From assembly GCA_012225525.1 (NCBI GenBank), contig GCA_012225525.1_3923.1: DNA of 64,000 bases; one strand, written 5' to 3'. Both the position numbers and the translations under genes were made by a program. A model generated the notes under the pieces. The model saw only the letters and a list, made by a program, of their open reading frames with translations. It ran no database searches and was not told the DNA's origin. Positions 5,579-45,602 of the stretch are shown here, piece by piece. The first letter of the stretch is position 1. Each line of letters starts with the position of its first letter. The DNA is from a phage.

Positions 5579-7813
5579 ATGATTAAGACAATTAAAAAAT
5601 CAAACGGTACAGTAGTAAGCTTTGACCCAGAAAGACTGAATAAATGGGCATCATGGGCAGATAAGCGTGGAATTATCTGGTCAGAAGTCACTATGGAAGC
5701 TATGAAACGTGTCTATGAAGGTTGCACCACAAAAGAGATGCACCAAGCCATGATTGATGTTTGTGTTGATAAACAAACTCAAGAGTACTCAGATATGGCT
5801 GGACGACTGCTTTTGGGTATTATCTACAAAGAAGCCTTTGGAGGCTTTACTAAGGTTCCTACGCTGGTTACCTTCGTTAAAAATATGGAGAGAGCAGGAC
5901 TTTGGGAGAAGATGGACTATTCTCAGGAAGAGCTTGAATACCTGCAAGGGTACATTGTGCACTCAAAAGATATCTCTTATGGTTATGCAGTCCTGAAACA
6001 GTTCAGAGACAAGTATGGTATCCGTGATATTAAAACGGGAAGACTTTTTGAGTCACCACAATTTATGTTTATGGGTATGGCTATGAAAGCCTTTGAGAAG
6101 CAACCAAAGCACCGTAGACTACAAGATGTTATCAAGCTGTACACTTACCTATCTGACCTGAAGATTAACGCTCCTACTCCTTACCTGAATGGTTTAAGAG
6201 CCACTAAATCAGGTTATGCGTCATGCTGTTTGATTAAGGCGAATGATACCGCTGAATCTCTCGGTATTGCTGCAAAGGTTGCTTATGATATGACTACAAA
6301 GCAAGCTGGTATCGGGATGCTGATGGAGACTCGCACTATTGGTGATGGTATCCGTCAAAATACTATTGAACACATGGGTAAGCTACCTTATTACAAGCTT
6401 GTACGTTCATCTGTAGAGGCAAACAAACAGAAGAGTCGTGGTGGTTCAGCTAACAACTTCTATACTGCTCTAGACCCGCAGATTGAAGATTTACTGCGTT
6501 TGAAGCACCCTACAACGGTTCCTTCGAAACGTATTAACGAGATGGACTACTCATTTGGTACAAATGATTATTTCTGGCAGTGTGTTCAATATGATACAGA
6601 CTGGTTGCTATTCTCTTACAAGGATGCACCAAAACTCTATGACATGTTCTACACAGCATCTGCTGATGAGTTTGCTATGGCAGTTGGTCACGCAGTCCAT
6701 TCAGGTGTTAAGCACAGACGAGTAAAGGCTCGTGAAATTGCTAAACTGTTTATCCAGCAGCGTTATGCAACAGGCCGTGTGTACCCATTCTTCACGAATA
6801 ATGCAAACACACATACGCCATTTAAAGAACCTTTGAAGATGTCAAATCTTTGTATGGAAATTGTGTTGCCAGTGTACGGCTTTGAGAAAGAGACAGACCT
6901 TTACAGAGATGATGCTGTGAAAGAGGATGGTGAGGTAGCTCTTTGCTTCCTAGCTAGTTTGGTTGCAGGGAGAATTTCAGAAGATGAATACGCTGACGTT
7001 GCTTATTATGCTCTTGCAATGGTTGACTCCGTTATTGACCTTATGGATTATCCGTATCCGTCGATGCGTAACCATGTTCAGAAGCGTCGTTCTGTTGGTA
7101 TTGGCCTTACAAATGTGGCTCATTACCTTGCAAAAAACTACGTGAACTACTCTTCAAGAGCAGGTAAGACGAAGCTTCATGAGCTTGCTGAAATGCACTC
7201 TTACTACTTACACGAAGCTTCTTTAAGACTTGCTAAAGAACGTGGTGTACCTGAGTATATGCAGTTCACTAAGTATCCTGAAGGCTGGGTTCCTCCAAAG
7301 ACAGCTAACAAGAAGATTGATGAGAAGCATGATGCAAAACTTCGTTATGATTGGGATGACTTAGCACAACGTATTAAAGAAAATGGTGGAATCCGTAACT
7401 CTGTATTAGAGGCTTACATGCCTAATGAGAGTTCTTCACTGGCAACTAATACGACAAACGGCTTGTACCCAATTCGTGACTTTATTTTAACTAAAAAGTC
7501 TGCAACTGGTAACGTACTGTTTATTGTTCCAGATTACGAAGAGTTGAAGTATGTCTATGAAATTGCTTGGGATATTGACACCTTTGACCTGATTGATTGT
7601 TATGCAATTGTTCAAAAGTTCACTGGTCAAGCTATCTCTTCAGATTTCTATGTTGACTACGCAAAAGCTAAGAAGGTATCATTGGCTCAAGCTTTGAAGT
7701 ACATGATTTATGCTAACTCAGTAGGTATGAAAACTATGTACTACCTTAACAGTCGCATTGGTGTAGGTAAATCTGCACTGCAAGATGCTTATTGCGAGGG
7801 TTGTGGTGTTTAG
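5579..7813 (+). CDS. nrdA: ribonucleoside-diphosphate reductase large subunit (class I RNR alpha)
   Basis: 744 aa; ATP-cone-like N-terminus; followed by NrdB and redoxin genes. Confidence 0.9.
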   Translation: MIKTIKKSNGTVVSFDPERLNKWASWADKRGIIWSEVTMEAMKRVYEGCTTKEMHQAMIDVCVDKQTQEYSDMAGRLLLGIIYKEAFGGFTKVPTLVTFVKNMERAGLWEKMDYSQEELEYLQGYIVHSKDISYGYAVLKQFRDKYGIRDIKTGRLFESPQFMFMGMAMKAFEKQPKHRRLQDVIKLYTYLSDLKINAPTPYLNGLRATKSGYASCCLIKANDTAESLGIAAKVAYDMTTKQAGIGMLMETRTIGDGIRQNTIEHMGKLPYYKLVRSSVEANKQKSRGGSANNFYTALDPQIEDLLRLKHPTTVPSKRINEMDYSFGTNDYFWQCVQYDTDWLLFSYKDAPKLYDMFYTASADEFAMAVGHAVHSGVKHRRVKAREIAKLFIQQRYATGRVYPFFTNNANTHTPFKEPLKMSNLCMEIVLPVYGFEKETDLYRDDAVKEDGEVALCFLASLVAGRISEDEYADVAYYALAMVDSVIDLMDYPYPSMRNHVQKRRSVGIGLTNVAHYLAKNYVNYSSRAGKTKLHELAEMHSYYLHEASLRLAKERGVPEYMQFTKYPEGWVPPKTANKKIDEKHDAKLRYDWDDLAQRIKENGGIRNSVLEAYMPNESSSLATNTTNGLYPIRDFILTKKSATGNVLFIVPDYEELKYVYEIAWDIDTFDLIDCYAIVQKFTGQAISSDFYVDYAKAKKVSLAQALKYMIYANSVGMKTMYYLNSRIGVGKSALQDAYCEGCGV

Positions 7814-14640: not shown

Positions 14641-14911
14641 AGAAAAGTGGGAGATTTTACCATTAGTCAGTGAAGGAGGTAATGGTTGTGAAATGTACAT
14701 GATACGTGGTCATGTTCCAGAGCCAATTGCACTTGAGATGGTAAACAACTTTACAGATGGTTCTTACAAAGACTTAGGCGAACCAACTGTCAAGCAACAA
14801 TGGGTTAAACCTGTACCAGACAGCACAGGTAACTGTAGTGTACTTTATCACGTTGTAGACCCTGCAAAATGCAAATCTGCAATGGCAGTAACAAACGTAA
14901 CTTTTGATTGA
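14633..14911 (+). CDS. hypothetical protein
   Basis: Track ORF. Confidence 0.35.
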   Translation: MTKEKWEILPLVSEGGNGCEMYMIRGHVPEPIALEMVNNFTDGSYKDLGEPTVKQQWVKPVPDSTGNCSVLYHVVDPAKCKSAMAVTNVTFD

Positions 14912-14922
14912 GAGAGAAAACT

Positions 14923-15804
14923 ATGAAAACATCTATCCGTGTTACAGTTCATTCACCAACTAAAGGGACTCATGAAGAAGAGTTTAACATCGTCCAATTC
15001 CCTTCTGGTGAGATTGGTGGACACTTTTCGCCAGAGTTTGTTGATTTTACTGCTTATGCAGCATCATCCATCAACAATGTGATTATGATTGTAAAAGGTT
15101 ATGACAAGGACACATTGTTTGCTGTGGCACTTGCTAAAGAAGCAATTGATGATTTAATTCCTCATGATTATGCTTTAAAGACTGTCATCTTTTACTACTT
15201 ACCAAATGCACGATATGACCGTCACATGTTTAAAGGTGACGCAGCAGCTTTAAAGGTTTTTGCTAAACAGATTAATGCAATGGGATTTGGCGCAGTCTGT
15301 GCAGTTGACCCTCACAGCTATGTACCAGATAACCTGTTTAACTGCTTCCAGAGTATTCCTCAAAAGGAGATTGCAGTCCACTATGCAAATGACCCACTGA
15401 TTGATTACTTAGTAGCCCCAGATGCAGGTGCTGCTAAGAAGATTGCAGAGACTGCTAAAGAGGTGGATAAACCATATATCACAATGTCTAAAGTACGCAA
15501 CCTTAAGACTGGTGAAATTACTGGTATGCGAATCCTTGATGATGTTGATTTGACAGATAAAACCGTCATGATTCTGGATGATATCTGTGATGGTGGTCGA
15601 ACCTTCATAGAAGCAGCTAAACATCTTCGTGAAGCAGGTGCAAAACGTGTGGAACTCTATGTAACACACGGTATCTTCTCTAAAGATGTTGAAAACCTTC
15701 TTGACAATGGCATTGACCACATCTACACTACAAACTCTTTAGGGGAAGCTAAAGACCGTGGCTTAACACATTATGGTCAAGTTACTGTAGCAAACCTTGA
15801 TTGA
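14923..15804 (+). CDS. ribose-phosphate pyrophosphokinase-like enzyme (Prs family)
   Basis: PRPP-binding-loop-like ILDDICDGGRTF and VAPDAGAAKK; ATG at 14923 (track ORF starts at TTG 14908). Confidence 0.8.
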   Translation: MKTSIRVTVHSPTKGTHEEEFNIVQFPSGEIGGHFSPEFVDFTAYAASSINNVIMIVKGYDKDTLFAVALAKEAIDDLIPHDYALKTVIFYYLPNARYDRHMFKGDAAALKVFAKQINAMGFGAVCAVDPHSYVPDNLFNCFQSIPQKEIAVHYANDPLIDYLVAPDAGAAKKIAETAKEVDKPYITMSKVRNLKTGEITGMRILDDVDLTDKTVMILDDICDGGRTFIEAAKHLREAGAKRVELYVTHGIFSKDVENLLDNGIDHIYTTNSLGEAKDRGLTHYGQVTVANLD

Positions 15805-15849: not shown

Positions 15850-17631
15850 ATGACTAAATCACTTTATGCAGTACCAGCAGGTTTAAACGCAGATGCTTAC
15901 AAATCTGGTCATGTTTACCAGTACCCTAGTGCAACAGAGTACTTGATGTTCAACCTGACACCACGTAGTGACAAATGGTTTAACAGCCCCTTAGCAATTG
16001 ATGGTGTAGTAGCTTTTGGTATTCAACGTTTCGTTAAAGATTACTTGATAGACCACTGGAACGCCACTTTCTTTGAACGTGATAAAAAAGAAGCCATTGA
16101 TGAAATCTTAGAAGTCATGAATGGTGTTCTGGGTAAAGATGCTATCGGTCGAGAGCATTGGGAAGCACTTCACGACTTAGGTTATCTACCAGTTGAAGTA
16201 TACGCTGTAGAAGAAGGTACAGTTGTTCCTATGCGTGTACCAATGATTGTCTTCCAGAACACTGTTTCAGGTTTCCATTGGGTAGCGGGGTATCTGGAAG
16301 ATGCTTTCTCTGCTGAGATTTGGAAGGCTTGTACCATTGCAACTATTGCATTGCATTATAAACGCATCTGTAAGAAGTGGGCTGACCTTACTTGCGACAA
16401 TGACTTACATTTGCCTTATCAGTGCCATGACTTTGCTATGCGTGGTATGTCCGGCTTTACTGATGACGCATTTAACGCTGTAGGCCACTTAACCAGCTTT
16501 AAAGGAACTGATAGCTTCCCTGCTGTGTATACGGCTAAACGAATCTATGGACAGTCTTACCCAATCTCTGATATTGGTAGCTCTGTACCAGCCACTGAGC
16601 ACTCTGTAATGTGTGCAAACATTGCTTGGGAAGGTGGTAATGATTTGGTTGAAGAAGAAAGACGCTTTAAAGGTGAGTTACAAACCTTCCGTCGTTTCTT
16701 AACAGAAACTTACCCAACTGGTATTGCAAGTGTTGTTTCAGACACTTATAACTTCTGGAGAACTGTGTCAGAAATCTTACCAGCACTTCGTAAAGAAATT
16801 ATGGAACGTGATGGCAAACTGGTAATTCGTCCTGACTCTGGAGACCCTGTACATATTGTCACAGGTTATAAAGCAATCCACTTAGAATGTGCTAAGAAGG
16901 CTTATTACGAGCACCTAATCAAGCTGGAAGCCAGTGACACAATGTTGAATGCTGTTCTGAACATGAAGCTTGAAAACATCAACTATGGTATTGCTGGATG
17001 GCTACTGTCAGAAGGCTACGAAATGGTTGTTGACAGAGAAGACTTTGAAGTTGCTGATACAGTGATGTTGAAAAACGCCTATATGGTTGGTTCTGCAAAC
17101 GTTGTAACACGTCCTGTAGCAGAGATTGATGGGGCCATTAAGACCTTGTATAACATCTTTGGAGGAACTATCAACTCTAAAGGGTTTAAGGTACTGGATG
17201 AGCACATTGGCCTTATCTATGGTGACTCTATCACGTTGGAACGTGCAAACGAAATCCTGAAGCGTTTGTATGAAATGGGTTTTGCAAGCTCTAACGTAGT
17301 GTTTGGTGTAGGTTCTTACACTTACCAGTACATGACTCGTGACACCTTTGCATTTGCTGTCAAAGCAACTCTTGCAAGCATTGGTGGTAAAGAGATTATG
17401 CTTGCAAAAGACCCTAAAACAGATAGCGGTATTAAGAAGTCTGCTTTTGGTGGTGTAGCCCCTATGTGGGATGGTGAGAATCTGAAAGCTGTAGATGGCT
17501 ATGGATTCCAGAGTTTTGCAGATGCACTTGAGCATCCAGCTTGTGCTTTACGTTTAGTCTTTAGCGACTCTGAGCAGTTCGGCTACACAACTCTTGGCGA
17601 TATTCGAAATAATATTGACAAGCAGCTTTAA
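15850..17631 (+). CDS. nicotinamide phosphoribosyltransferase-like enzyme (NAMPT family)
   Basis: 593 aa; N-terminal DAYKSGHVYQYP resembles NAMPT DSYK region; adjacent to Prs-like gene. Confidence 0.8.
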   Translation: MTKSLYAVPAGLNADAYKSGHVYQYPSATEYLMFNLTPRSDKWFNSPLAIDGVVAFGIQRFVKDYLIDHWNATFFERDKKEAIDEILEVMNGVLGKDAIGREHWEALHDLGYLPVEVYAVEEGTVVPMRVPMIVFQNTVSGFHWVAGYLEDAFSAEIWKACTIATIALHYKRICKKWADLTCDNDLHLPYQCHDFAMRGMSGFTDDAFNAVGHLTSFKGTDSFPAVYTAKRIYGQSYPISDIGSSVPATEHSVMCANIAWEGGNDLVEEERRFKGELQTFRRFLTETYPTGIASVVSDTYNFWRTVSEILPALRKEIMERDGKLVIRPDSGDPVHIVTGYKAIHLECAKKAYYEHLIKLEASDTMLNAVLNMKLENINYGIAGWLLSEGYEMVVDREDFEVADTVMLKNAYMVGSANVVTRPVAEIDGAIKTLYNIFGGTINSKGFKVLDEHIGLIYGDSITLERANEILKRLYEMGFASSNVVFGVGSYTYQYMTRDTFAFAVKATLASIGGKEIMLAKDPKTDSGIKKSAFGGVAPMWDGENLKAVDGYGFQSFADALEHPACALRLVFSDSEQFGYTTLGDIRNNIDKQL

Positions 17632-17645
17632 AAGTATATGATAAT

Positions 17646-17667
17646 AGGCTCCTACGGGAGCCTTTTT
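17646..17667 (+). terminator. intrinsic terminator hairpin
   Basis: AGGCTCC-TACG-GGAGCCT followed by TTTT. Confidence 0.6.
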
Positions 17668-17684
17668 AATTTCTGGAGAAAATT

Positions 17685-18020
17685 ATGAAAATCAAAGAGA
17701 TGAACATCAACATTGTCTTAGAAGAGCGTTGGGAGAACATCAAGAAGCCTGAAAATGGTCATAAGTTCCTCAACAAAATCTTAGTAGCAGCTAAAGAAGA
17801 ACTGACTGGGAAGATTGCAGCAGCAATCACAATAAAGGTGTGTGTAAAAGGTCTTCCAGACAATCACCAATTTGCACTTGACGAGTTTAAAGAAAGCTTC
17901 TACAATCCAAACAAACAGATGCTTGAAAGTAACTTTGCAGTATCTACAAGTATCGTCCATGACAGAAGCTTTATCCTTTACAAAAACATGAGAGGTGAGT
18001 CATGCAAGCATATTGGGTAG
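17685..18020 (+). CDS. hypothetical protein
   Basis: Track ORF. Confidence 0.4.
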   Translation: MKIKEMNINIVLEERWENIKKPENGHKFLNKILVAAKEELTGKIAAAITIKVCVKGLPDNHQFALDEFKESFYNPNKQMLESNFAVSTSIVHDRSFILYKNMRGESCKHIG

Positions 18021-18178
18021 AAATTTTACTGTCACTTGGTAGTGTAGCAGTCCTTGTTTACCTTCTTTGTAAGTACTTTGCAGAACACAAGAAGTGTGAC
18101 TACTGTAATGGAGAAGGGTATACAAGAGCAGGTTGTTGCCCTATGTGTGGTGGTTCTGGTAAAATGTTTAATAAGTAA
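18002..18178 (+). CDS. small membrane-anchored zinc-finger protein (58 aa)
   Basis: ATG 18002 after GAGG; hydrophobic N-terminus then CDYCNGEGY...CCPMCGGSG (two CxxCxGxG units); not in track (under 60 aa). Confidence 0.3.
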   Translation: MQAYWVEILLSLGSVAVLVYLLCKYFAEHKKCDYCNGEGYTRAGCCPMCGGSGKMFNK

Positions 18179-18206
18179 TTTAACAGTAAACTAAGAGGAA
18201 AGTATT

Positions 18207-20573
18207 ATGCGCATGGTAAATGACCACGCAGAAGTGATTAAGAGTTCAACTTCTTTAGAGACGTCTCAAGCACAGATTACAATGACACCTGAGATGTTCA
18301 GCCTTTTGAGTTCTGGTGTATATACCTTTAAAGAAAGGGCAGTGATTCGTGAACTGTCATGTAACGCAGTAGATGCTCAGAAAGAAGCTGGAAAAGAGAA
18401 CATCCCGTTCCATGTGCATTTACCTACTCGTTTTGAGCCTTACTTTGAAGTTCGTGATTTTGGAACTGGATTGACTCATGATAAAGTTATGAGTTTGTAC
18501 CTAAACTACGGGGCTTCTACGAAGAATGACTCTAATGACTACATTGGTGCAATGGGTATCGGCTCAAAATCCCCATTTGCAATTGCTCAGTCATTCACAG
18601 TATCTAGCTATGTTGATGGTGTTGTTAATAAGTACTCTGTTTATCTTGAGAATGGTATCCCTCAAGTAACTAAGCTGACCACTAACCCAACAAAAGAACC
18701 TAATGGTTTAGCTGTACGTGTGGCAGTTGCTGACCACCGTATCTCAAAGTTCTTTGAAGAAGCTGGAAATGTGTACTCATACTTCACTGTAAAACCAGAA
18801 AGTAATATTGAGTACGACGATGTATTAGCAGATATGAACGTCATTGCCCGTGAAGAAGGTGTTTATGATGCCATGATTCATAAGCAAAGCTGGCGTTCTA
18901 GTGGTAATAGGACAGAGTTTAATGTGGTGATGGGTAATATTGCCTATCCAGTGAACATGGAAGCATTACTTGGTGATGATTTCTTCAAAGTCTTGCCAGA
19001 GTTTTTCCGTAGGAGCGTAGACCTTGTAAACATCTACATGCCTATTGGTTCAGTTGCTATAGCCGCTTCTCGTGAAGCATTGCAGATGAATGATACGACA
19101 AAAAATGTTATCATCGAGGCTACCAAAAAGATAACTGAAGCAATTACAAAGGATGTTATCAAGAAAGTTAATAGCCAACCTACACTGATGGATGCTGCAC
19201 AGGCTTATGCAGAGTTACGTTTGAACTCACGAGAGATGTTTAATGCTGTGTGTCCAAAGCTAGAGTGGGGAGGCGTTAAGCTTGATTCTCTGGAAGAAGA
19301 ATTGTTAAACATTCGTCGTGGAATTATCTACGCAGAAGACGGCTCAGTCATTTATGAACGTGACGGTAAAGGCAATATTAAGGTTGATAGGAACGGGAAT
19401 AATATCCCTAAAGTAGATTATCTTTATAACCCAGTTGCTTATGTCAAGTTCAACTCTTTAGAGAGTAAGATTCGTGCAACAGCACTTTCCTACACTCAAG
19501 AGGCAAGTATGTTCAATATCTTTGGTGCAATGCGTAAAAGCCAAATTGAACAGTTTTTGTTCGTGATTAATGACCGTCGCAATAAAAACGGTACTGAGAA
19601 GACTGTAGGACGCAATCAAATCTTGCGTGGTGCATGTCGAGACTACGCTAACGAGTCAAGTCTGTTCCACAGATACAATGGTATTGTGTTTGTATTCTCG
19701 ACTGAGAAAGAGCTAGATGACTTAATCAATCTGCACAAACTTGATAAAAGCTTGTTAAAGATTGTGAAGATGTCTGATAAGGAACATCACTATCAGCGTA
19801 AAGAAGCTGTAAGAGGTGTTGTAAAACTCTGGAAAGCTGTTCCAGCAGAAGGTGTAGCTTCCTATAAAGAGGTTTCAGAGGACTTTGATACAATTGAAGA
19901 ACCTCAGCTTTACATTAAGGCAGTTGGTGACACAGTTGATGGCGAATGTTTTTGCTCATCTCCAGAAGATGTGGCTAAGTCAGTTGCTAATGTTATAGGG
20001 AAGACAGTCTATGTTTTCCGAAAAGCAAATTGGAAAAAGATACCAGAAGACTGGATTGAAGTAGATGAGAAGCTCTTGAACGACAGCTTAACTGATGTTC
20101 ATTGGATTAATCATAACAGGTATATGACACGCATCTACATGAATGGTGTTCTTGACCTTACAAGCAGTTGGATTATTGCCAGAAACTTTACATTCAATAA
20201 CAGGAAGATTTCTCGTGGCTATTGCTATTCACGAGATACTAGCAAAACTATCTTCCTAGAAGGTAATGAAGAGGCTGTAGAGGCTATGTTCGGTAAAATC
20301 CAGTATGTTGCTGCACCGTTTGCATACACTTACACTATTAGCAGATTGCAAACTTTGAAAGAATGCCTTGACAATGATACAAAGCTTTACAAGAAAATTA
20401 AGAAAGCTGGTGACCGTATGGTTATTAAGGTGACAAACTACCTTTCAAAAAGAAAACAAGAAAACTTCTTGCTTTCTCATTTAGATTGGAATAAAGTGTC
20501 ACCCATCGAAGTGAGTAAGTTCTTAGGCTTTGATGTGAAGTGTGTTCCAGAAGGAACTACAGTTTACGATTAA
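18207..20573 (+). CDS. GHKL-superfamily (HSP90/MORC/GyrB-like) ATPase domain protein, 788 aa
   Basis: N-box ELSCNAVDA, G1 box VRDFGTGLT, G2 box GAMGIGSKSPF in the N-terminal 130 aa. Confidence 0.55.
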   Translation: MRMVNDHAEVIKSSTSLETSQAQITMTPEMFSLLSSGVYTFKERAVIRELSCNAVDAQKEAGKENIPFHVHLPTRFEPYFEVRDFGTGLTHDKVMSLYLNYGASTKNDSNDYIGAMGIGSKSPFAIAQSFTVSSYVDGVVNKYSVYLENGIPQVTKLTTNPTKEPNGLAVRVAVADHRISKFFEEAGNVYSYFTVKPESNIEYDDVLADMNVIAREEGVYDAMIHKQSWRSSGNRTEFNVVMGNIAYPVNMEALLGDDFFKVLPEFFRRSVDLVNIYMPIGSVAIAASREALQMNDTTKNVIIEATKKITEAITKDVIKKVNSQPTLMDAAQAYAELRLNSREMFNAVCPKLEWGGVKLDSLEEELLNIRRGIIYAEDGSVIYERDGKGNIKVDRNGNNIPKVDYLYNPVAYVKFNSLESKIRATALSYTQEASMFNIFGAMRKSQIEQFLFVINDRRNKNGTEKTVGRNQILRGACRDYANESSLFHRYNGIVFVFSTEKELDDLINLHKLDKSLLKIVKMSDKEHHYQRKEAVRGVVKLWKAVPAEGVASYKEVSEDFDTIEEPQLYIKAVGDTVDGECFCSSPEDVAKSVANVIGKTVYVFRKANWKKIPEDWIEVDEKLLNDSLTDVHWINHNRYMTRIYMNGVLDLTSSWIIARNFTFNNRKISRGYCYSRDTSKTIFLEGNEEAVEAMFGKIQYVAAPFAYTYTISRLQTLKECLDNDTKLYKKIKKAGDRMVIKVTNYLSKRKQENFLLSHLDWNKVSPIEVSKFLGFDVKCVPEGTTVYD

Positions 20574-20578
20574 AGTGT

Positions 20579-20608
20579 TTGACAAGGGGCTTCAAAGCCC
20601 CTTAGAAT
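20579..20608 (+). promoter_or_regulatory. promoter-like TTGACA/TAGAAT with hairpin in the spacer
   Basis: TTGACA at 20579, hairpin AAGGGGCTTCAAAGCCCCTT, TAGAAT about 18 bp downstream. Confidence 0.35.
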
Positions 20609-20652
20609 AGCCTTACAAAATGATTTATTAACTAACAAGAGAGAGTAATAAG

Positions 20653-21762
20653 ATGACTACTAAAACTAAAGCACAGATTGACGCAGAAATTTACAAACTG
20701 GTTAAAGAAGGTAAGCTGACTAAAACAGCTATTGCACAGAAATTTAATACTTCAACCCGTTCAGTTGGTCGTGCTGTAGAGCGTCATGAAGCAACCTTAA
20801 AAGGGAATAAGAAGGCGACTTCTACACCAGCTACGAAAACTTTGAAGCAAGTTGCTAAGACCTTTAAGAAGAAAGCTGGCAAACCAGTTGAAAAGGCTGT
20901 TAAAGACACTGTACAGAAAGCTCCAGTAAATAAACTGCACGAAGCTATGCAGAAAGATGACAAGATTGAGTACATGATTACTGGTGATTCTGTAATTATG
21001 ACTTATGGTTCAGAATCTGAAATTGTTGAGTCTACTCATCCGAACTATCAAGAGATTGTAGTTCATGTTGTGAAAGGTGAGTTCAAGAAAGCATTTGAAC
21101 TGATGAACATTCGTAAGTCTATCGAAAACTTCACTCAGGGTGCTATCACAATCAAAGGTGACAAGCTATTCTACGGTGCTGTTGAGATGCGTTCTACTCT
21201 GGTTGACCGTATTCTTCACATGATGAAAACTGGCGATAAAGGTTTTGAACGACTTGTAATGTTCTTCGAAAAACTGATGGAAAACCCATCTAAAGATTCT
21301 GTAGAACAACTTTGGGGATTTGTATCTCACCTTGATGTTGAAATTGATGAAGAAGGCTACATCATTGGTTGGAAGAAAGTCTCTACTCGTGAAGGCAAGC
21401 TGGTTGACTCTCACACCTACAAAGTTCCTAATGATTTGGGTAACATTGTAGAAATGCCACGTTGGATGGTTGATAATAACCGTAACGTAACTTGCTCTCA
21501 AGGTCTTCATGTTGGTGCTTGGGATTATGTTCGTTGCTTCTCAGGTGATACAATCCTGAAGGTTCGCGTACATCCACGAGATGTTGTATCTGTTCCAACT
21601 GATTACAACGATATGAAGATGCGTTCCTCTCGTTATGAAGTTGCAGCAATCGTTGATAATCAACGTAAAGTGCTGGAAGCATGGGACGGTAAGACTGAAG
21701 CTTTGCATGTCATCGTTGGCACTGCTGGTGAACTCATCTCTCAACGTAAACGTGAAATCTAA
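20653..21762 (+). CDS. hypothetical protein with N-terminal helix-turn-helix-like segment
   Basis: TKTAIAQKFNTSTRSVGRAVERHE near N-terminus followed by Lys-rich linker. Confidence 0.4.
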   Translation: MTTKTKAQIDAEIYKLVKEGKLTKTAIAQKFNTSTRSVGRAVERHEATLKGNKKATSTPATKTLKQVAKTFKKKAGKPVEKAVKDTVQKAPVNKLHEAMQKDDKIEYMITGDSVIMTYGSESEIVESTHPNYQEIVVHVVKGEFKKAFELMNIRKSIENFTQGAITIKGDKLFYGAVEMRSTLVDRILHMMKTGDKGFERLVMFFEKLMENPSKDSVEQLWGFVSHLDVEIDEEGYIIGWKKVSTREGKLVDSHTYKVPNDLGNIVEMPRWMVDNNRNVTCSQGLHVGAWDYVRCFSGDTILKVRVHPRDVVSVPTDYNDMKMRSSRYEVAAIVDNQRKVLEAWDGKTEALHVIVGTAGELISQRKREI

Positions 21763-21778
21763 TAAGTAATTTCTTAAA

Positions 21779-21801
21779 AGGCTGCTTCGGCGGCCTTTTT
21801 T
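21779..21801 (+). terminator. intrinsic terminator hairpin
   Basis: AAGGCTGC-TTCG-GCGGCCTT followed by TTTTTT. Confidence 0.6.
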
Positions 21802-21862: not shown

Positions 21863-22411
21863 ATGAAGAAATTGATTCTAGGTTTGTGCTTAATGTTTAC
21901 AGCACACTTATCTTATGCAGTTGACTGCCCAGAGCTATCAATTAGCCAAAAAGTGAACATGTTAAAAGCTTACCAGTATGGTGAGAATAACATGGGTAAA
22001 GGTTGGGGTATCACTCTAGCAGCTATAGCCTTACAAGAGTCAGAGTTAGGTCTGAAGGTAGAAAATAAAAAGACCCATGACTATGGTATCTTCCAGAATC
22101 ACTTGAAGACTGTTGTAAAGCGTAACAAAATTAGTCCTAATGTTGCTAAAAAGAAACTCTTAAAAGATTTTGACTATGCCGCAAAAGAAACACATAAAGA
22201 GCTTGAGTTTTGGACGAAGGTACATGGTCACCCAAAGTCAAAGAAGACTTTACAAAAAGTTTTAGCATCATATAATGCTGGGTATTCGTACAGAATCCCT
22301 AAAGCTAAGAAATACTCTCAAGATGTCTATAACAATATGAAAGTTATCGCTCAATGTGAATTTGCAACAAACATTTCTAAGGTAAATCATGAAAAAATTA
22401 AGAAAGTCTGA
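21863..22411 (+). CDS. secreted lysozyme-like / lytic transglycosylase-like protein
   Basis: Signal-peptide-like N-terminus MKKLILGLCLMFTAHLSYA; QESELG...YGIFQNH resembles SLT catalytic region. Confidence 0.4.
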   Translation: MKKLILGLCLMFTAHLSYAVDCPELSISQKVNMLKAYQYGENNMGKGWGITLAAIALQESELGLKVENKKTHDYGIFQNHLKTVVKRNKISPNVAKKKLLKDFDYAAKETHKELEFWTKVHGHPKSKKTLQKVLASYNAGYSYRIPKAKKYSQDVYNNMKVIAQCEFATNISKVNHEKIKKV

Positions 22412-25113: not shown

Positions 25114-25899
25114 ATGGGTATTGTAAAAATAATCAATGGTGATATCTTTGCCGCATTTGATAAAGGTAAGTTTGACATCATCGGTCACGGTTGCAACTGT
25201 ATGAATTTAATGGGTGCAGGTATCGCTGACAAGATTTCTAAACTTTACCCAAAAGCATATGAGACCGATACAGAAGTTTATCTATATGCAGGTGGTATAG
25301 GACACAAACCCTGTGAAAATTTACTGGGTAATTTCTCTGTAGCACGTTTAAAACAAGGTCGTATAGCTAACCTTTACACTCAGCTTAAGACTGGTAAAGA
25401 TGCCCGATACAGTGCTTTAGAGTCATCTTTGAAACAGCTTAACAGATACTGTGAAGTTAATCAGTTGAAGAAAGTTGGTTTACCTATGATTGGTGCAGGT
25501 ATTGGTGGGCTGGACCCTCAAGCTGTCATAGTTATCATCAATCAGGTGATGAAGAGTGTAGATGTTTATCTGTATGTCTATGAAGGAGAGATGTACCACA
25601 AGTTACGCTCAGGTTGGAAGAACTACTGTGAACCAGAATACTTTGCAGGTGTAGCAGTGTTCACAGATAACGCAGTTACCCTCTTCAGACGAAGAAAAGG
25701 TAAGATACATCAAAGTAACCCTCCGGTTGAAAAGATGTCTCTGAGTAACGCTCTAGTTACCCACCTGTCGAAGAGCAATCACAGGATTGCAGTAACATTT
25801 GGCAGTGATGCAGATACTTATATCTATGCAAGAACTGATGAGGATATCGAGACAGTTTTCTCTTCACCAGAAGTTACCTTCTTAGACGCAAAGAACTAA
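25114..25899 (+). CDS. macro-domain-like protein (ADP-ribose binding/processing)
   Basis: INGDIF...FDIIGHGCNCMNLMGAGIADKI and GLPMIGAGIGGLDP resemble macro domain N-terminal and Gly-rich motifs. Confidence 0.5.
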   Translation: MGIVKIINGDIFAAFDKGKFDIIGHGCNCMNLMGAGIADKISKLYPKAYETDTEVYLYAGGIGHKPCENLLGNFSVARLKQGRIANLYTQLKTGKDARYSALESSLKQLNRYCEVNQLKKVGLPMIGAGIGGLDPQAVIVIINQVMKSVDVYLYVYEGEMYHKLRSGWKNYCEPEYFAGVAVFTDNAVTLFRRRKGKIHQSNPPVEKMSLSNALVTHLSKSNHRIAVTFGSDADTYIYARTDEDIETVFSSPEVTFLDAKN

Positions 25900-33778: not shown

Positions 33779-34372
33779 TTAAATCAGTGTTTCCAGAACT
33801 GTTTTCAATGATGACTTGGTTGTCTGATAAAAATGAGTAAATCCATTGTTATTATCGAATACCTGCATCATGATATCATCTCCCTTGATTGGGTACACTC
33901 GGATATCATAGTGAAAACCATTAAAGACACAAGAGCCATTACAGAATGCACTAAAGTCATCCACTGAGATATACTCTTCATGTCCTGTGATTTTTATACA
34001 AACACCTTTACTCGGTCTCTTAGGGTTGATATCTTCCATCACAGACATACTCTGTCCACCAAGAGACACCATAGTGACCACTTTACGGTTCTTCTGTTTA
34101 AAGTACATCTTAACTTTCTGCAAAGTGTCTTCATAGAACGGATAAGACTTCTCTACAAATATTCCTTCAAGTGGCTCTTTACCATTTTCAACTTCTCTGG
34201 TATGTCGTACTGCAAAGATAATTTGTTGGAACCAGTCAAGATTTTCTTCGGAGAGTGCTTCTCGAACATCACTCCAGTCAAGGACTAGATAGTTACCTTC
34301 AACTTCTTTTAAGTTATCTTTTTCCATATCTATCACACCATTATCGTAAAACTTGATATTCTGGTACTGCAA
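33779..34372 (-). CDS. hypothetical protein
   Basis: Track ORF, 197 aa. Confidence 0.45.
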   Translation of the reverse strand: MQYQNIKFYDNGVIDMEKDNLKEVEGNYLVLDWSDVREALSEENLDWFQQIIFAVRHTREVENGKEPLEGIFVEKSYPFYEDTLQKVKMYFKQKNRKVVTMVSLGGQSMSVMEDINPKRPSKGVCIKITGHEEYISVDDFSAFCNGSCVFNGFHYDIRVYPIKGDDIMMQVFDNNNGFTHFYQTTKSSLKTVLETLI

Positions 34373-34805
34373 ACTTGTTGCTATTGTTCCTAATAAGGTC
34401 TTCTTCTGTTACTAAGAATGTAATCCCACATAAGTGCGTATAGTGGCTGTCATACTCGAATATTTTAAGTAAGTATTTACCATCATGATAAACAGATTCT
34501 ACTACACCTTTTGCAACAATCTTTCCAGTCTTGAAGTCTTTAAGAGGGTATGTATTACCAACTTTAGGGACTGTTTTCACTTCAGGTTCTTTTAGCTTCT
34601 CACTAGCTTCTACATCACCTAGTAAGTTAGAACTTTCAAAAGCTCTGAATCTCATATAAGCTTCTGAACATTCCCAGATAAAACAATGTACAAGAACCTT
34701 AGCAGCATGTCTTGAGCAATTCAACTCATCACAGATTTCTTTGTACATTTCATCTTTAGTTGAATTGGTAAGCATTGCTTTTCGAACTGTTTCTTTAATT
34801 TTCAT
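34341..34805 (-). CDS. hypothetical protein
   Basis: Track ORF, 154 aa. Confidence 0.45.
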   Translation of the reverse strand: MKIKETVRKAMLTNSTKDEMYKEICDELNCSRHAAKVLVHCFIWECSEAYMRFRAFESSNLLGDVEASEKLKEPEVKTVPKVGNTYPLKDFKTGKIVAKGVVESVYHDGKYLLKIFEYDSHYTHLCGITFLVTEEDLIRNNSNKFAVPEYQVLR

Positions 34806-35223
34806 AAGCTCTCCGAATAACCCTATTAAGCATCTCTAAAGTCAGCTTTCCAGACTCTAAATGTGGCATAACAAGCTTTAAAGCTTTTTCAACATCATGC
34901 ACAACATCTATTATACCTTCTTCATAGGCTTCTACAAGGATATCTTTTACGTTTTGTTGGTTATCTTTTTGTGGTATTGCTAGACGCATATTAAACTCAT
35001 TTGCTTGAGGGTGGTCACTACCACGCCAGTAACCATCTTTGTTAAAGCTGATGTAGTCACCGTGGTAAAAGTGTACACCATTAGCTTTAAACTTCTCCAG
35101 CACAAGGCATTGAATTGGGTATTCAGTATTCCACTCCCTGACTCCTATAACCTTCACTGTTGCGATGTACTCCTGTGTTTTTGCATCTATGATGTCAAGT
35201 TCTTGACCAGCTATGATTTGCAT
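34795..35223 (-). CDS. hypothetical protein
   Basis: Track ORF, 142 aa. Confidence 0.45.
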   Translation of the reverse strand: MQIIAGQELDIIDAKTQEYIATVKVIGVREWNTEYPIQCLVLEKFKANGVHFYHGDYISFNKDGYWRGSDHPQANEFNMRLAIPQKDNQQNVKDILVEAYEEGIIDVVHDVEKALKLVMPHLESGKLTLEMLNRVIRRAYEN

Positions 35224-35277
35224 ATTCGCTACCTTCTAAGTTTCTACAAAGGGGCTATCAAGTAACCCCTCAAGTTA

Positions 35278-35502
35278 TTACTCAGACTTTTCAGTCTTCT
35301 TGTCGGATTTCTTACTAGTCTTCTTCTCAGCTTTCTGCTCAGGCTCCTTCTCAGAAGTTGCCTTAATAACCATATCAAGAAGCTCTGATAAGTCACTCTT
35401 CAGTAAAGTAACAGGCTGCTCATTGTAGAAGTTTTTGTCAAGATAGACTTTGAACTCTTCAATAGATGGAAATCCAAAAATTGGTACAGGTGTCTTAATC
35501 AT
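35278..35502 (-). CDS. small hypothetical protein
   Basis: Track ORF, 74 aa. Confidence 0.35.
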   Translation of the reverse strand: MIKTPVPIFGFPSIEEFKVYLDKNFYNEQPVTLLKSDLSELLDMVIKATSEKEPEQKAEKKTSKKSDKKTEKSE

Positions 35503-35578
35503 TACTTAGTTTCTCCATAAGCATCTTTCAAGATTGCCTTGTTAATCATTTCAGCGATTGCAAAACGAACACATACAG

Positions 35579-36112
35579 CTATAATTGTAGGTTGCATTCT
35601 TTACTTACCTCTTCAAGTTTAACCTCAGAGTCCTTAAGTCGTTTCTTATGAACTCTGAATCTCATTAGTGAGATGATGATACCAACTAAAGGGACAGCAT
35701 ACAAGTACCAAACATCATATACCTTTGCAGTAATCTGTGCAATTGTCAAATCTTGAGCTATGCAGCTAATTACTGATACTGCCAGTAACGTTGCTAAGAA
35801 GAAAGCCAGTATCATAACAATATTCAGACAACCTCTGGCATGGTATTCATGCTTAATGCACTTATTCTTTTCGTCAACAACCCTGTTGTAGTCGTTTGTA
35901 AAGTCTCTGTAGAAAGCTTTCAAGTATTCTTGAGTGTAGCCTTCAAAGCAACCTGTACCATACCAATAATCACCACCAAAATGTGCTATGATACCGGTAT
36001 CTCCATTTGGTTTGGTTACTCTTAAAGAGACATGATGACCAGTCTTCTGGTAATCTATCTTATATCTTTCTTCGTAAATCATTTTCCAACCCCTCTCAAT
36101 CTCTTGTTCCAT
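35579..36112 (-). CDS. membrane protein
   Basis: Two hydrophobic segments (ILAFFLATLLAVSVI, LYAVPLVGIIISL). Confidence 0.4.
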   Translation of the reverse strand: MEQEIERGWKMIYEERYKIDYQKTGHHVSLRVTKPNGDTGIIAHFGGDYWYGTGCFEGYTQEYLKAFYRDFTNDYNRVVDEKNKCIKHEYHARGCLNIVMILAFFLATLLAVSVISCIAQDLTIAQITAKVYDVWYLYAVPLVGIIISLMRFRVHKKRLKDSEVKLEEVSKECNLQL

Positions 36113-36297
36113 TCAAGGTCAACAAATCTTTGCAGAACTTTTCCTCTAGGTGTTACACCTTTTAAATCTGCATCGTAACAATGGTAAAAATCACCTTCAG
36201 CGTGTTTACCATAGCATTTTCTGATATTCTGGCTTCTGCGATACTGTTCTAACAAGGACAGTTTGTAGTAATCTTCAACTGTAGTTAGTTTTTTCAT
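36079..36297 (-). CDS. small hypothetical protein
   Basis: Track ORF, 72 aa. Confidence 0.3.
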   Translation of the reverse strand: MKKLTTVEDYYKLSLLEQYRRSQNIRKCYGKHAEGDFYHCYDADLKGVTPRGKVLQRFVDLEWNKRLRGVGK

Positions 36298-36839
36298 TCT
36301 TTCACCATAGCATTTCTGAACTGGCGTTGTGTTTCTCTTGTAATTTCGTTTGGGGTAAACCCTGCTTTTAGCATATCTCTGAAAAGAACTTCTAAGTGGT
36401 CCCTCTCAATGGTGTAAATGGCATTCTGAATAGCTGTTTTACGCTCCTTCAGGTCGCTGCTAATCTCTTCGCACTTGCTTGTAAGTTCTGTGTCAACTTT
36501 CTTATAGACTGGCATAACATGTGCATAACAACCTTTATTGGTCTCCATGAAGAATTTAAAAGATTCTTCAGAGTCCTTTAGAGCAATCCCTATAAAGTTC
36601 TTGTAAGCACCTGTGAAAGATAAGGACTCAATCTCAGCAGTTGAGTATACAGTCCCTGCACACAGCCTTGCAGAAGTACTAAATGTGTGGTTTGGTGTCA
36701 TGTCAAAATCTAAGTTCTTCAGTGGCCTGAAATAAACAATACCGTTGTGTGAGATATGTGTTACAACAGCCTCAACACTCTTTGAAGGATTCTGTTTAAC
36801 ATACAAAATAATTTTATCGTGTTCTTTCACTTTAGCCAT
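36294..36839 (-). CDS. hypothetical protein
   Basis: Track ORF, 181 aa. Confidence 0.45.
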   Translation of the reverse strand: MAKVKEHDKIILYVKQNPSKSVEAVVTHISHNGIVYFRPLKNLDFDMTPNHTFSTSARLCAGTVYSTAEIESLSFTGAYKNFIGIALKDSEESFKFFMETNKGCYAHVMPVYKKVDTELTSKCEEISSDLKERKTAIQNAIYTIERDHLEVLFRDMLKAGFTPNEITRETQRQFRNAMVKE

Positions 36840-36911
36840 ATCTATTCTCCAGAAACTAAAAAGGGAACTACCTTTCGATAGCTCCCATCATAATCAATAT
36901 TGTATACTCGG

Positions 36912-37493
36912 TCAAGAGTATTTTTTAGGCAGTAATGCACTGCGCTTGTTGCTCTCTTCACTCAGCAGTGCGATAAATTCATCACCTTTACCCTTCCACG
37001 GGCTAAATGTAGGGATGTGTTCTCTGATAGCGTCAATCACTGTTTTCAGGGCATTGTTTTTTAGCCACCAATCAGACACTGCTGAAGCTACAATATAATA
37101 AGCACCATCATCTGTGAAGATTGGCTCAGAGATACATGGTGAAATCATAGTGGTGATGATAGAGCCGTTATTCATGTAATATGTTCTTTTTTCAACCTTA
37201 TCAAGAAGCTTATGTAGGTCTGCAAAGAGACTCACAACCTCTTTATGGTCAATATCTTTTTCAAGATTTGCTCTATATTTCAGCAGTGCAGCATCAACCT
37301 CTTTATCATTAAATTTGAAGTACTGGACTTCTTCATTCACACATACACTGATGTTGTTAGTGTTTATCGTCAATTTGCACAGTTTGACTGGAGAGTTGAT
37401 GTTGGTCTGAAAAAGTGCTACACAGCCTTCTACATTTCCGAAATGTTTTACTAATGTAACTTCTGGTTGGATATGCTCATGTTCTTCTGACAT
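36912..37493 (-). CDS. hypothetical protein
   Basis: Track ORF, 193 aa. Confidence 0.45.
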   Translation of the reverse strand: MSEEHEHIQPEVTLVKHFGNVEGCVALFQTNINSPVKLCKLTINTNNISVCVNEEVQYFKFNDKEVDAALLKYRANLEKDIDHKEVVSLFADLHKLLDKVEKRTYYMNNGSIITTMISPCISEPIFTDDGAYYIVASAVSDWWLKNNALKTVIDAIREHIPTFSPWKGKGDEFIALLSEESNKRSALLPKKYS

Positions 37494-37837
37494 TACAGTT
37501 TCCTCATTAAATACTTTTTAAGTTGTGTGTTAGGTTTCTCAAAAACTTCTATAGAAGATATCTTGACAGACTCACCACGCATACCAGTATGTTTGAATAT
37601 GTAGTACTCTAACATCCCTATGTACTTTGCTGGTAAGTCATATTTGACATACACCGTCACAGAATCTTCAAATTCTACAACCTTTGTACCATCTTTGTAG
37701 TTGAACTCTTTAGGATGGTTGTAGTTGTCTATGTCATACATTAAAAAGAGTCTTTTACGTTGTAAATCAAGCTTATTTGTTAAAGACTCTTTGATATCTG
37801 AGAAGTTTTTGTACACTGTGACATGGAGCTTACTCAT
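37493..37837 (-). CDS. hypothetical protein
   Basis: Track ORF, 114 aa. Confidence 0.4.
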   Translation of the reverse strand: MSKLHVTVYKNFSDIKESLTNKLDLQRKRLFLMYDIDNYNHPKEFNYKDGTKVVEFEDSVTVYVKYDLPAKYIGMLEYYIFKHTGMRGESVKISSIEVFEKPNTQLKKYLMRKL

Positions 37838-38123
37838 CGTTAAACTCTCTGACGAAGAAATAGTTGACTTTGTTATTACCTACCATAAGGTCAAAGCAGG
37901 TATTTTCAAAAGGTTTGTTGTAGGCATCGTATGAAACATATGGGTCAGCTACTTGCTTAGTGCTTAACTTCTTACTTGATGGATTTAAGAGGCCACCATA
38001 CAGCTTCTTGATAGCCTCTTCTACAACAGACCAGATAATTTCGTCAGTAATTTCTTCGTACAGGTCAAGTTCACGCTCTAGTGAGAAGTCACAAATAGGG
38101 AAAACAACCTGTACTTTACTCAT
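37830..38123 (-). CDS. hypothetical protein
   Basis: Track ORF, 97 aa. Confidence 0.4.
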   Translation of the reverse strand: MSKVQVVFPICDFSLERELDLYEEITDEIIWSVVEEAIKKLYGGLLNPSSKKLSTKQVADPYVSYDAYNKPFENTCFDLMVGNNKVNYFFVREFNDE

Positions 38124-38512
38124 TAACGAACAACCTGTGAGACTTGAATTGCTTCAGTTACAGACAAATCACCAACTTTCTCTTCTTTGATAAAAGTGAA
38201 GGTGAGTTCAACAGGCTCTTGCTCTTCTTGCTCAACTGGAATGCCATTAAGCTCATCGCGGATTGATTGAGTTGTCCAGTCTTCTCCACCATCTGGATAA
38301 TGGATGGCGTAAAGAGGAAACTCCGTGTCATACCAGCCAAATACAGGGCAACCATCTGCATCATCTCGCATTCTGCGAAGGGTGCTACCTGAGCCTGTAA
38401 AGCGAAGACTAATATTCCCATTACACTCAAAAATCACTGCGTCAGCAAGTCCAGCATCTTCTCGACCATCATGGCCAAAGGTGTCAACTTTTACTTGAAT
38501 CTCTTTATTCAT
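38123..38512 (-). CDS. hypothetical protein
   Basis: Track ORF, 129 aa. Confidence 0.4.
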   Translation of the reverse strand: MNKEIQVKVDTFGHDGREDAGLADAVIFECNGNISLRFTGSGSTLRRMRDDADGCPVFGWYDTEFPLYAIHYPDGGEDWTTQSIRDELNGIPVEQEEQEPVELTFTFIKEEKVGDLSVTEAIQVSQVVR

Positions 38513-38903
38513 AAAAACCTCTCTCTGCTTGTTCTATTTTTGCTCTTAAAGCTTCGCAATGTTGTAAATGATAGTTAGCTTCTTGCTCATGTGTTGCTAA
38601 CTGCCTTTCCAGAACAGTTTTATAATAACTTGCGAGTTGCTCTTTTGTCAATGGGTGCTCTGAAATAATATCAAGTCCACTTTCACCAAGAGGGTTGAAT
38701 TGTCCATGTTCGTTGACATTGTAAGTCTCAAACTTGAACAGGCCATTGTTCACAGACTCAATAGGTGACAGTTCAACAAGCTCTACAGTAAACCGTGTAT
38801 ATACCTTGTCACCTCTTGAAACCACATTGTTCCCGACAATGCGTACAAGCGAGCCATTACGAGTGTACTTAAAAGTTCCAAAGTCACTAGCCCAAAGTTT
38901 CAT
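38505..38903 (-). CDS. hypothetical protein
   Basis: Track ORF, 132 aa. Confidence 0.4.
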   Translation of the reverse strand: MKLWASDFGTFKYTRNGSLVRIVGNNVVSRGDKVYTRFTVELVELSPIESVNNGLFKFETYNVNEHGQFNPLGESGLDIISEHPLTKEQLASYYKTVLERQLATHEQEANYHLQHCEALRAKIEQAERGFYE

Positions 38904-38931
38904 AGCTTTCTCCTTAGAAAATAAAAAAGGC

Positions 38932-38954
38932 TCCCGAAGGAGCCTATGAAGATA
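38932..38954 (-). terminator. intrinsic terminator after endolysin gene
   Basis: Minus-strand AGGCTCC-TTCG-GGAGCCT followed by TTTTTT. Confidence 0.55.
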
Positions 38955-39419
38955 TTACTTTGGGTATACACTGTCAAGATAAATGTCAGCTTCCATTCTA
39001 CGTCTGTTTTTCAGACCGTTTGAAGTGACCTTCTTACCTTTGACTGTAACCTTGTTCCACCACTGCATAGCTTCTGCACAACCTACCTTATTACCGGCAT
39101 TGTGGCGCTTGATAAATGTGGAATCCTGCATAGCTGTGATACCGATGTTGTATGTTTCACTTACAAGTGCATCGAACTCATTCTGAGTAGTTGGAACCTT
39201 GATAGCTTTGTTCACTGCTGCAACAAACTTCTCAACATCCGCGAGAAGATACTGTTCAGCTTGTTCAGCAGTAATTTTCATACCCATCTTAACAGGTTTT
39301 CCGTCAATACGGATTGTCCCATACCCGATTGTTGGGATTCCGGCAGAATCTTCGTAAGCCTCTAACTCCAGACCTTCGAAGAACTTAATAGCATCTAAAC
39401 CTTTTCTTGAGAGTTGCAT
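38955..39419 (-). CDS. endolysin, phage lysozyme (GH24 muramidase-like)
   Basis: LELEAYEDSAGIPTIGYGT motif typical of T4/lambda-type lysozymes; 154 aa. Confidence 0.7.
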   Translation of the reverse strand: MQLSRKGLDAIKFFEGLELEAYEDSAGIPTIGYGTIRIDGKPVKMGMKITAEQAEQYLLADVEKFVAAVNKAIKVPTTQNEFDALVSETYNIGITAMQDSTFIKRHNAGNKVGCAEAMQWWNKVTVKGKKVTSNGLKNRRRMEADIYLDSVYPK

Positions 39420-40552: not shown

Positions 40553-40920
40553 TTCTTTTCAGCCTCTAAATGTGCGTTTAGCCTAAAATAACCTTTGTGA
40601 TTCGGAGATACATCACCAACAACAATACCTTTAACCTTATAACCTTTACCAATTACATACTGGATATCCATAAGGAATCTTCCAAGACCAACAATATGGA
40701 ACATTGGATATAATAGATTCTCAGAGTCTGGAATATTGATTTCAGGTTTGTAGGTGCGTTGTTCGCTTGTTGGTGTAATATCTTCTTCAGGCCATTTACT
40801 GAGTCTCCATGTCAAAGGTGTTGGGATAACATCATTAAGGTTGTACCTTTCACCATTTTGCACGGAATTGATATAGGATTGTAGGAAGCAATAAAAGTCT
40901 TTTGCACTCTTAGCTTTCAT
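40549..40920 (-). CDS. paralog of the N-terminal domain of the Ig-repeat protein
   Basis: LMDIQYVI vs FMDLQYAI and similar overall pattern; 123 aa. Confidence 0.45.
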   Translation of the reverse strand: MKAKSAKDFYCFLQSYINSVQNGERYNLNDVIPTPLTWRLSKWPEEDITPTSEQRTYKPEINIPDSENLLYPMFHIVGLGRFLMDIQYVIGKGYKVKGIVVGDVSPNHKGYFRLNAHLEAEKK

Positions 40921-40967
40921 TAAATATCCTTATAAATAGTTAAAGGGGCATCAGCCCCTATTCACAC

Positions 40968-41949: not shown

Positions 41950-42019
41950 GGCAGACCTACAGCTTTAAGTAAGATGGTACAGTAATCCATACAACAAGTC
42001 AAGAACTATTGCAAGTTAA

Positions 42020-44288: not shown

Positions 44289-44295
44289 AATTAAT

Positions 44296-44373: not shown

Positions 44374-44463
44374 GTTTTGACAGAAGACCAATTACAGCAA
44401 ACTTAATCTACTCATCTGAAAGTTAATCGGACAAAGAAGATATTTGGTCTGGTCATTAAGAAT

Positions 44464-45601: not shown

Positions 45602-45602
45602 A

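Follow-up and report, generated by a model that had tools for sequence, protein, structure and literature searches.

The rIIA gene of a Felix-O1-like phage and the affinity of its ATPase module to Hsp90

The rII genes of phages have been studied since Benzer. Knock-down of rIIA or rIIB by CRISPR interference in phages T4, MM02, EdH4, SUSP1 and N4 lowers the efficiency of plating only on hosts carrying lambda RexAB, and leaves infection of plain E. coli unchanged (PMC11879866). Published T4 transposon data agree with rII being needed on RexAB hosts. In phage Bas63, deletion of g84 or g85 reduces plating 10^4-10^5-fold on hosts carrying QatABCD, and complementation restores it (preprint PMC11482910). 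It has also been published that rIIB triggers CARD-gasdermin defence, and that rIIA contains a GHKL domain (Iyer et al. 2021, PMC7824862). Here we describe the gene at positions 18207-20573 (+ strand) of a 64,000-nucleotide stretch of phage DNA (GenBank assembly GCA_012225525.1, contig GCA_012225525.1_3923.1), the whole of which is called the window below. The gene is orthologous to rIIA and belongs to a Felix-O1-like myovirus (Felixounavirus). We consider it probable, at roughly 0.85, that rIIA and rIIB constitute a widespread accessory counter-defence module that is conditionally essential, being dispensable on naive hosts and needed for plating where certain abortive-infection systems such as RexAB or QatABCD are present, that the Felixounavirus rIIA of this module is encoded here, and that rIIA would act as an ATP-driven clamp.

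Identity of the gene and its relatives

The gene, its ribosome-binding signal and its downstream partner are placed as follows:

18195-18199, + strand: Shine-Dalgarno sequence GAGGA, 7 nucleotides (nt) before the rIIA ATG, read from the sequence
18207-20573, + strand: rIIA coding sequence, stop codon included, identified from the list of open reading frames (ORFs), phrog_612, and nucleotide and protein identities
20653-21762, + strand: rIIB coding sequence, 369 amino acids (aa), matching phrog_609 'RIIB lysis inhibitor' (E=2.4e-89), with relatives annotated rIIB

In the ORF list, 18207-20573 is a clean ATG-initiated frame of 788 codons encoding 788 aa (89.6 kDa). A full-length profile match, significant similarity to T4 rIIA and a same-strand rIIB gene immediately downstream identify it as a member of the rIIA family. 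In the PHROGs scan, residues 1-770 matched positions 1-716 of the 725 in phrog_612 'RIIA lysis inhibitor' (E=2.4e-189), and BLASTP aligned residues 24-317 with T4 rIIA (NP_049616, 725 aa) at 32% identity (E=8e-37). By megablast, a 4.4-kb stretch around the gene shared 96-97% DNA identity with many Felixounavirus genomes annotated with rIIA and rIIB. The protein is 99.7% identical to rIIA of Escherichia phage HY02, and 98% (774/788 aa) identical to gp84 (bas63_0084) of Bas63 (JohannRWettstein; genome accession MZ501086, PMC11482910). The rIIA and rIIB proteins of Bas63, HY02 and the O157 typing phages are equal in length to those of the window and 98-99.7% identical, differing by a handful of substitutions, and these Felixounavirus relatives share a neighbourhood of prs, NAMPT, small ORFs, rIIA, rIIB, polynucleotide kinase and spanins. 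Given these DNA and protein relatives, the window belongs to a Felix-O1-like phage genome, with which the pair of NAD (nicotinamide adenine dinucleotide) salvage genes upstream of rIIA and a cluster of 26 tRNA genes at 44212-49367 (+ strand) are in keeping. A tRNA cluster of this size is typical of Felix-O1-like phages.

T4 rIIA and the 788-aa protein fall into one PHROG over their full length. They have the N-terminal ~320 residues in common, with identical ATP-binding motifs and, in T4, the loop PSREALS described below; both are followed by rIIB, and each is part of a module required only when the host carries a defence. In contrast, BLASTP gave no alignment between their C-terminal halves, and the defence shown to be countered is QatABCD in the nearest tested relative, Bas63, rather than RexAB as in T4. 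Relatives of rIIA were found by tblastn in 2,926 of 50,697 phage records. They span myo-, sipho- and podoviruses, with hosts among Proteobacteria, Actinobacteria and Cyanobacteria.

The rIIB gene starts 79 nt after rIIA. The same order is kept in typing phage 1, Bas63, N4 (a podovirus), Streptomyces phage Muntaha, Caulobacter phage CcrSwift and Microcystis phage Mwe-JY26. In the Mwe-JY26 genome, the gene directly downstream of the rIIA homologue (5864-6913, XAI95949), annotated 'transposase', is a rIIB homologue with 30% identity to the rIIB of the window (E=2e-33). The rIIB protein of the window consists of an N-terminal segment resembling a helix-turn-helix (HTH), where Pfam gives weak HTH matches at residues 10-45, followed by a Lys/Ala-rich linker and a conserved core at about residues 104-338. 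Since the conserved core of the Mwe-JY26 protein starts at residue 2, the HTH and Lys/Ala-rich stretch that makes up the first ~100 residues of Felixounavirus rIIB is an add-on. The profile phrog_609 (1055 positions) matches the N-terminal module of rIIA at positions 31-299 and rIIB at 755-1048, which suggests that natural rIIA-rIIB fusions exist or that the cluster is mixed.

An initial annotation of this gene, made from the letters and the ORF list, had not recognised it as rIIA and had suggested a link to a downstream HTH protein at 20653-21762. The linkage is real, since the downstream gene is rIIB and its position is kept in distant phages. The implied novelty was not borne out: rIIA is among the best-known phage genes, hundreds of near-identical genomes already have it annotated, and its GHKL domain had been published before (PMC7824862).

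The ATPase module and the C-terminal half

The protein can be divided into two conserved N-terminal domains and a variable C-terminal region. All of the following lie on the + strand:

18276-18782: GHKL (Bergerat-fold) ATP-binding domain, about residues 24-192
18339-18377: Motif I (N box) AVIRELSCNAVDA, with R48, E49, N53 and D56 invariant; aligns with HtpG FLRELISNASDA
18450-18476: Motif II (G1 box) VRDFGTGLT, of the form DxGxG, with D84 and G86 invariant and G88 in 61/65 sequences
18543-18581: Motif III (G2 box) IGAMGIGSKSPFA, of the form GxxGxG, at the end of the ATP lid, with G114, G117, G119 and K121 invariant; aligns with HtpG IGQFGVGFYSAF
18783-19259: second domain, equivalent to the Hsp90 middle domain or GHKL 'transducer', followed by helices, about residues 193-351
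19044-19085: loop IGSVAIAASREALQ, candidate catalytic-arginine loop, with G281, R289 and E290 invariant; aligns with HtpG NVSREILQ
19260-20570: C-terminal region of family-specific alpha/beta domains, about residues 352-788, with no known relative

Conservation was assessed in an alignment of the 788-aa protein with 64 homologues (65 sequences in all), the homologues being 22-68% identical to the query. As the motif residues are invariant across such divergent proteins, the three motifs are not chance matches. They occur in the order I (E..N..D), II, III, and an AlphaFold2 model built from the 64-sequence alignment places them in an alpha/beta sandwich of the Bergerat fold. The model is confident, with a mean predicted local distance difference test (pLDDT) score of 87.8; scores are lower, at 60-70, in the lid residues 100-117 before the G2 box. 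E49 is presumed to be the general base and N53 the Mg2+ ligand, and from the invariant catalytic residues we infer that rIIA binds and hydrolyses ATP. The segment before the N box (ET..A.I....MF..LSSG.Y..K) resembles the strand-swap and first-helix signature of Hsp90. With the 788-aa protein alone, Pfam gave only a sub-threshold HATPase_c match (E=0.12) and the PDB sequence set gave no match, so that family profiles were required. Of 64 family members, 20 matched Pfam HATPase_c_3.

In a search of the whole PDB sequence set with the rIIA family profile, only Hsp90-family chains were found at E<0.01 (TRAP1 at 2.7e-5, HtpG at 0.006), and no chain of MutL, GyrB, MORC or Topo VI appeared at E<=10. 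The 50 top Foldseek matches of the rIIA model were likewise all Hsp90-family chains (best E=4e-17). Sequence profiles separate the GHKL families where structure searches do not. In NCBIfam the best matches were PRK14083 'HSP90 family protein' (E=2.7e-11) and then the sacsin N-terminal domain, and in PADLOC the best match was the Tiamat protein TmtA.

The similarity to Hsp90 extends into the second domain. When the rIIA profile was aligned with a five-sequence HtpG profile by hhalign, rIIA residues 17-366 matched HtpG residues 4-423 over 334 columns with a probability of 97.5% (E=7e-12); across the hhalign comparisons with HtpG the probability was 95-97%. In this alignment the invariant rIIA loop AASREALQ, containing R289 and E290, fell with high posterior on HtpG NVSREILQ, which contains R336. 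In Hsp90, R336 of HtpG, like R380 of the yeast protein, contacts the ATP gamma-phosphate from this middle-domain SRE loop. The profile of residues 192-345 alone found the same HtpG segment (P=2.3e-4), and its column-reversed control did not (P=0.48). The middle-domain profile gave no Hsp90 match among PDB sequences and a weak match (probability 4%) to a single HtpG sequence; it was moderately significant only against the small HtpG profile. Support for the middle-domain match is therefore moderate, not conclusive.

Compared with the Hsp90 family, rIIA has an Hsp90-type N-terminal domain and an SRE-loop middle domain, without an Hsp90 C-terminal domain and with a score of 42.6 bits against the curated family NF010683, below its cut-off of 455. 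Its identity to HtpG, TRAP1, Hsp82 and Grp94 is about 12-19%. Unlike these proteins it has neither a charged linker nor a detectable C-terminal dimerisation domain, and nothing shows any chaperone activity for it. MORC, SMCHD1, sacsin and TmtA belong to the same Hsp90-like GHKL branch (Pfam HATPase_c_3). These are cellular proteins that serve in chromatin or in defence. The counter-defence protein rIIA, by contrast, comes from phages and lacks their CW zinc finger, coiled coil, hinge and other accessory domains. The conserved part of rIIA is a complete and evidently active two-domain ATPase module, whose nearest relative by sequence is Hsp90, the catalytic-arginine loop included. A large Hsp90-like 'ATP-binding protein' was also seen on the Pseudanabaena sp. 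plasmid ABRG53a (1132-3555), with 30% identity to the HtpG N-terminal and middle region; its gene divergently adjoins that of a TIR-domain protein, in a context resembling a defence island.

The C-terminal region is of a different character. Residues ~352-788 are far less conserved than the module and rich in insertions and deletions, and they contain no Pfam, NCBIfam or PADLOC domain. AlphaFold2 folds the region confidently, into alpha/beta domains specific to the family, in agreement with Iyer et al., and no structural match to this part of the model was found. As neither the C-terminal model nor the domain searches gave a match, nothing points to a C-terminal domain of the Hsp90 type. This half, lineage-specific and structurally unprecedented, presumably contacts the target. 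No published link of rIIA to Hsp90, HtpG or MORC was found in the open-access literature, where two points appear to be unstated: the affinity to Hsp90, including the SRE arginine loop of the second domain, and a C-terminal half without a structural relative.

The initial annotation had placed an ORF with three Bergerat-fold motifs here, and these are real (residues 48-61, 80-90 and 114-127); its GHKL assignment was correct, as the motifs are ordered and conserved and the fold is supported by the profile searches and the AlphaFold2 model. Its statement that no recognisable motif follows residue 130 was too strong in view of the second, Hsp90-middle-like domain at about residues 193-351.

Neighbouring genes and signals

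The following features surround the rIIA-rIIB pair, all on the + strand. The promoter and terminator calls are consensus pattern matches only.

14908-15804: ribose-phosphate pyrophosphokinase-like gene, upstream of rIIA, first of the NAD-salvage pair
15850-17631: nicotinamide phosphoribosyltransferase gene (NAMPT), upstream of rIIA, second of the NAD-salvage pair
17615-17663: promoter-like site TTGACA-16-TATGAT (17615-17642) beside a terminator-like hairpin (17646-17663), after the NAMPT gene, from the consensus scan
18002-18178: ORF of 58 aa, 29 nt upstream of rIIA, phrog_3931, of unknown function
20579-20608: sigma-70-like promoter match TTGACA-18-TAGAAT in the gap between rIIA and rIIB, with 11/12 consensus positions
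21776-21799: strong hairpin resembling an intrinsic terminator, with a 10 bp stem and a T run, just past rIIB, from the consensus scan

The site at 17615-17663 is likely the upstream boundary of a unit made up of rIIA, rIIB and two small ORFs. Upstream of rIIA lies the NAD-salvage pair, whose orthologues g79 and g80 in Bas63 are reported to counter the NAD-depleting Sir2-HerA defence (PMC11482910); for this reason the region of 14.9-21.8 kb looks like a counter-defence cluster. Typing phage 1 (4032-4430) and Bas63 (20455-20859) have an extra small ORF of about 345 bp between NAMPT and the 111-aa ORF upstream of rIIA, which the window (17631-17685) lacks. The megablast matches to these two records are split in two and span about 350 bp more than the query.

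The 58-aa ORF begins with a hydrophobic helix (Kyte-Doolittle 2.14 at residues 5-23) and contains two DnaJ-type CxxCxGxG repeats, CDYCNGEG and CPMCGGSG, which match Pfam DnaJ_CXXCXGXG below its cut-off (E=0.0065). The adjacency of this putatively membrane-anchored, DnaJ-like zinc finger to an Hsp90-like ATPase may or may not be a coincidence. As a general companion of rIIA the ORF was rejected: it is confined to Ounavirinae, and rIIA.1, the small ORF beside T4 rIIA, is unrelated to it.

Three further observations concern the rest of the window. Past the rIIB terminator, an ORF of 182 aa (21863-22411, + strand) has a signal-peptide-like N-terminus, belongs to phrog_600, of unknown function, and has a weak SLT lytic-transglycosylase match below cut-off (E=9e-4). 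A 261-aa protein (25114-25899, + strand) matches phrog_335 'phosphatase'; its N-terminal half resembles, by eye, a macro (ADP-ribose-binding) domain, and it could be an NAD/ADP-ribose-related counter-defence gene. Both GC skew and AT skew reverse their sign at ~34000-42000, which indicates a minus-strand gene block inside an otherwise plus-strand region.

Mechanism, alternative explanations and meaning

Published genetics, among them those on the 98%-identical Bas63 protein, settle the counter-defence role at the phenotype level. On the conserved residues and the fold, we propose that rIIA is a dimeric clamp driven by ATP, as Hsp90 and MORC are. Binding of ATP would close the lid, whereupon the N-terminal domains would dimerise. 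R289 of the second domain would then contact the gamma-phosphate and trigger hydrolysis. Contact with the target would fall to rIIB and the lineage-specific C-terminal half of rIIA; the target would be either defence proteins or a state of the membrane or nucleoprotein that those proteins detect, and engaging it would keep the defence from firing. The invariance of the catalytic Glu, the Mg-binding Asn, the adenine-binding Asp, the Gly-rich lid and the second-domain Arg points to genuine turnover of ATP. A bolder version, which is tentative and which we would not bet on, sees rIIA as a viral offshoot of Hsp90. It would have kept the N-terminal ATPase, the strand-swap segment and the catalytic arginine, and exchanged the client-binding and dimerisation half for a fast-evolving phage-specific one, so as to act with rIIB as an ATP-driven clamp or remodeller that disarms abortive-infection complexes, RexAB and QatABCD among them. 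In Ounavirinae, the upstream membrane-anchored DnaJ-type zinc-finger ORF might take part in the disarming too.

Several points weigh against this account of rIIA and rIIB. The literature yielded no report of rIIA ATPase activity, dimerisation or a binding partner, and the clamp mechanism is drawn by analogy. An Hsp90-like C-terminal dimerisation domain was sought in rIIA and not found. The QatABCD result comes from a preprint whose authors' depolarisation model is speculative (PMC11482910), and the RexAB phenotype is known from T4, MM02, EdH4, SUSP1 and N4, not from the phage described here; SUSP1 belongs to the same subfamily, the Ounavirinae. T4 rIIA has been described as membrane-associated (Ennis & Kievitt 1973, as represented in a citing paper). 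Transmembrane segments, which would account for the label 'membrane integrity protector', were sought in both proteins and found neither in rIIA, where the highest Kyte-Doolittle 19-residue mean is 1.29, nor in rIIB, so the route of rIIA to a membrane-level defence is unexplained.

Three other explanations were weighed. The first makes rIIA a GHKL enzyme that manipulates DNA, akin to topoisomerase-B, MutL or MORC. Its substrate would be the DNA of the phage or of the host, where it might, for instance, hide or remodel intermediates of replication or recombination that set off defence, and rIIB would be its DNA-binding HTH partner. The structure is compatible with such an enzyme. However, the profiles find only Hsp90-family proteins, with MutL, GyrB, MORC and Topo VI missing from the PDB hits at E<=10 and from NCBIfam, and in the C-terminal 440 residues Pfam, NCBIfam and the structure search detect neither a Toprim, nuclease or CW domain nor any other that binds DNA. 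The residue conserved in the second domain is an arginine, placed in an SRE loop like that of Hsp90, whereas the transducer domain of GyrB and MutL has a lysine there. The marks of a topoisomerase II subunit or of MutL, namely a Toprim domain, the MutL C-terminal endonuclease/dimerisation domain and the transducer lysine, are thus absent, and we regard the DNA-manipulating enzyme as improbable. The initial annotation, which had called the protein not obviously a topoisomerase or MutL, was right in this respect, as homology to topoisomerases goes no further than the common ATPase module. Among the roles that it offered, counter-defence is upheld by the genetics on the 98%-identical Bas63 protein, and a DNA-manipulating ATPase has no specific support.

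Even less probable is a degenerate GHKL pseudo-enzyme that serves as decoy or scaffold only, for instance by stoichiometric binding of a defence sensor without ATP turnover. The lack of any reported rIIA ATPase activity and the sub-threshold score of the protein with the curated Pfam GHKL models would suit it. Yet all ATP-binding and hydrolysis residues, as well as the second-domain arginine, are invariant across the 65 sequences, and a dead scaffold is unlikely because such invariance across deep divergence is that of an active enzyme under purifying selection. The least credible of the three takes the label 'RIIA lysis inhibitor' of PHROGs and RefSeq literally and makes rIIA a lysis-timing component that delays holin triggering. 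Spanin genes do lie about 2 kb downstream in relatives, and rII mutants were historically isolated as rapid-lysis plaques. Against this, knock-down of rIIA or rIIB is without effect on Rex-free hosts (PMC11879866), the T4 RefSeq note ascribes rapid lysis to prophage effects, and rII is described as not directly involved in lysis inhibition, its phenotype depending on prophage genes (Miller 2003; Abedon 2019, both as conveyed by a citing paper).

The gene is an ordinary one: about 5-6% of sequenced phages carry rIIA/rIIB, and dozens of deposited Felixounavirus genes are nearly identical to this copy. As rII still lacks a known molecular mechanism, the residual value of rIIA is mechanistic. The Hsp90-like N-terminal and middle module is a modest refinement of the known picture; it narrows the rII question to a conserved ATPase module closest to Hsp90 and a lineage-specific half. 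Precise point mutants can now be defined in Bas63-like phages, where knock-outs and a QatABCD phenotype exist. If rIIA were indeed a viral Hsp90 derivative, the 70-year-old rII problem would turn into one of chaperone or clamp biochemistry with the defined mutants E49A, D84N and R289A.

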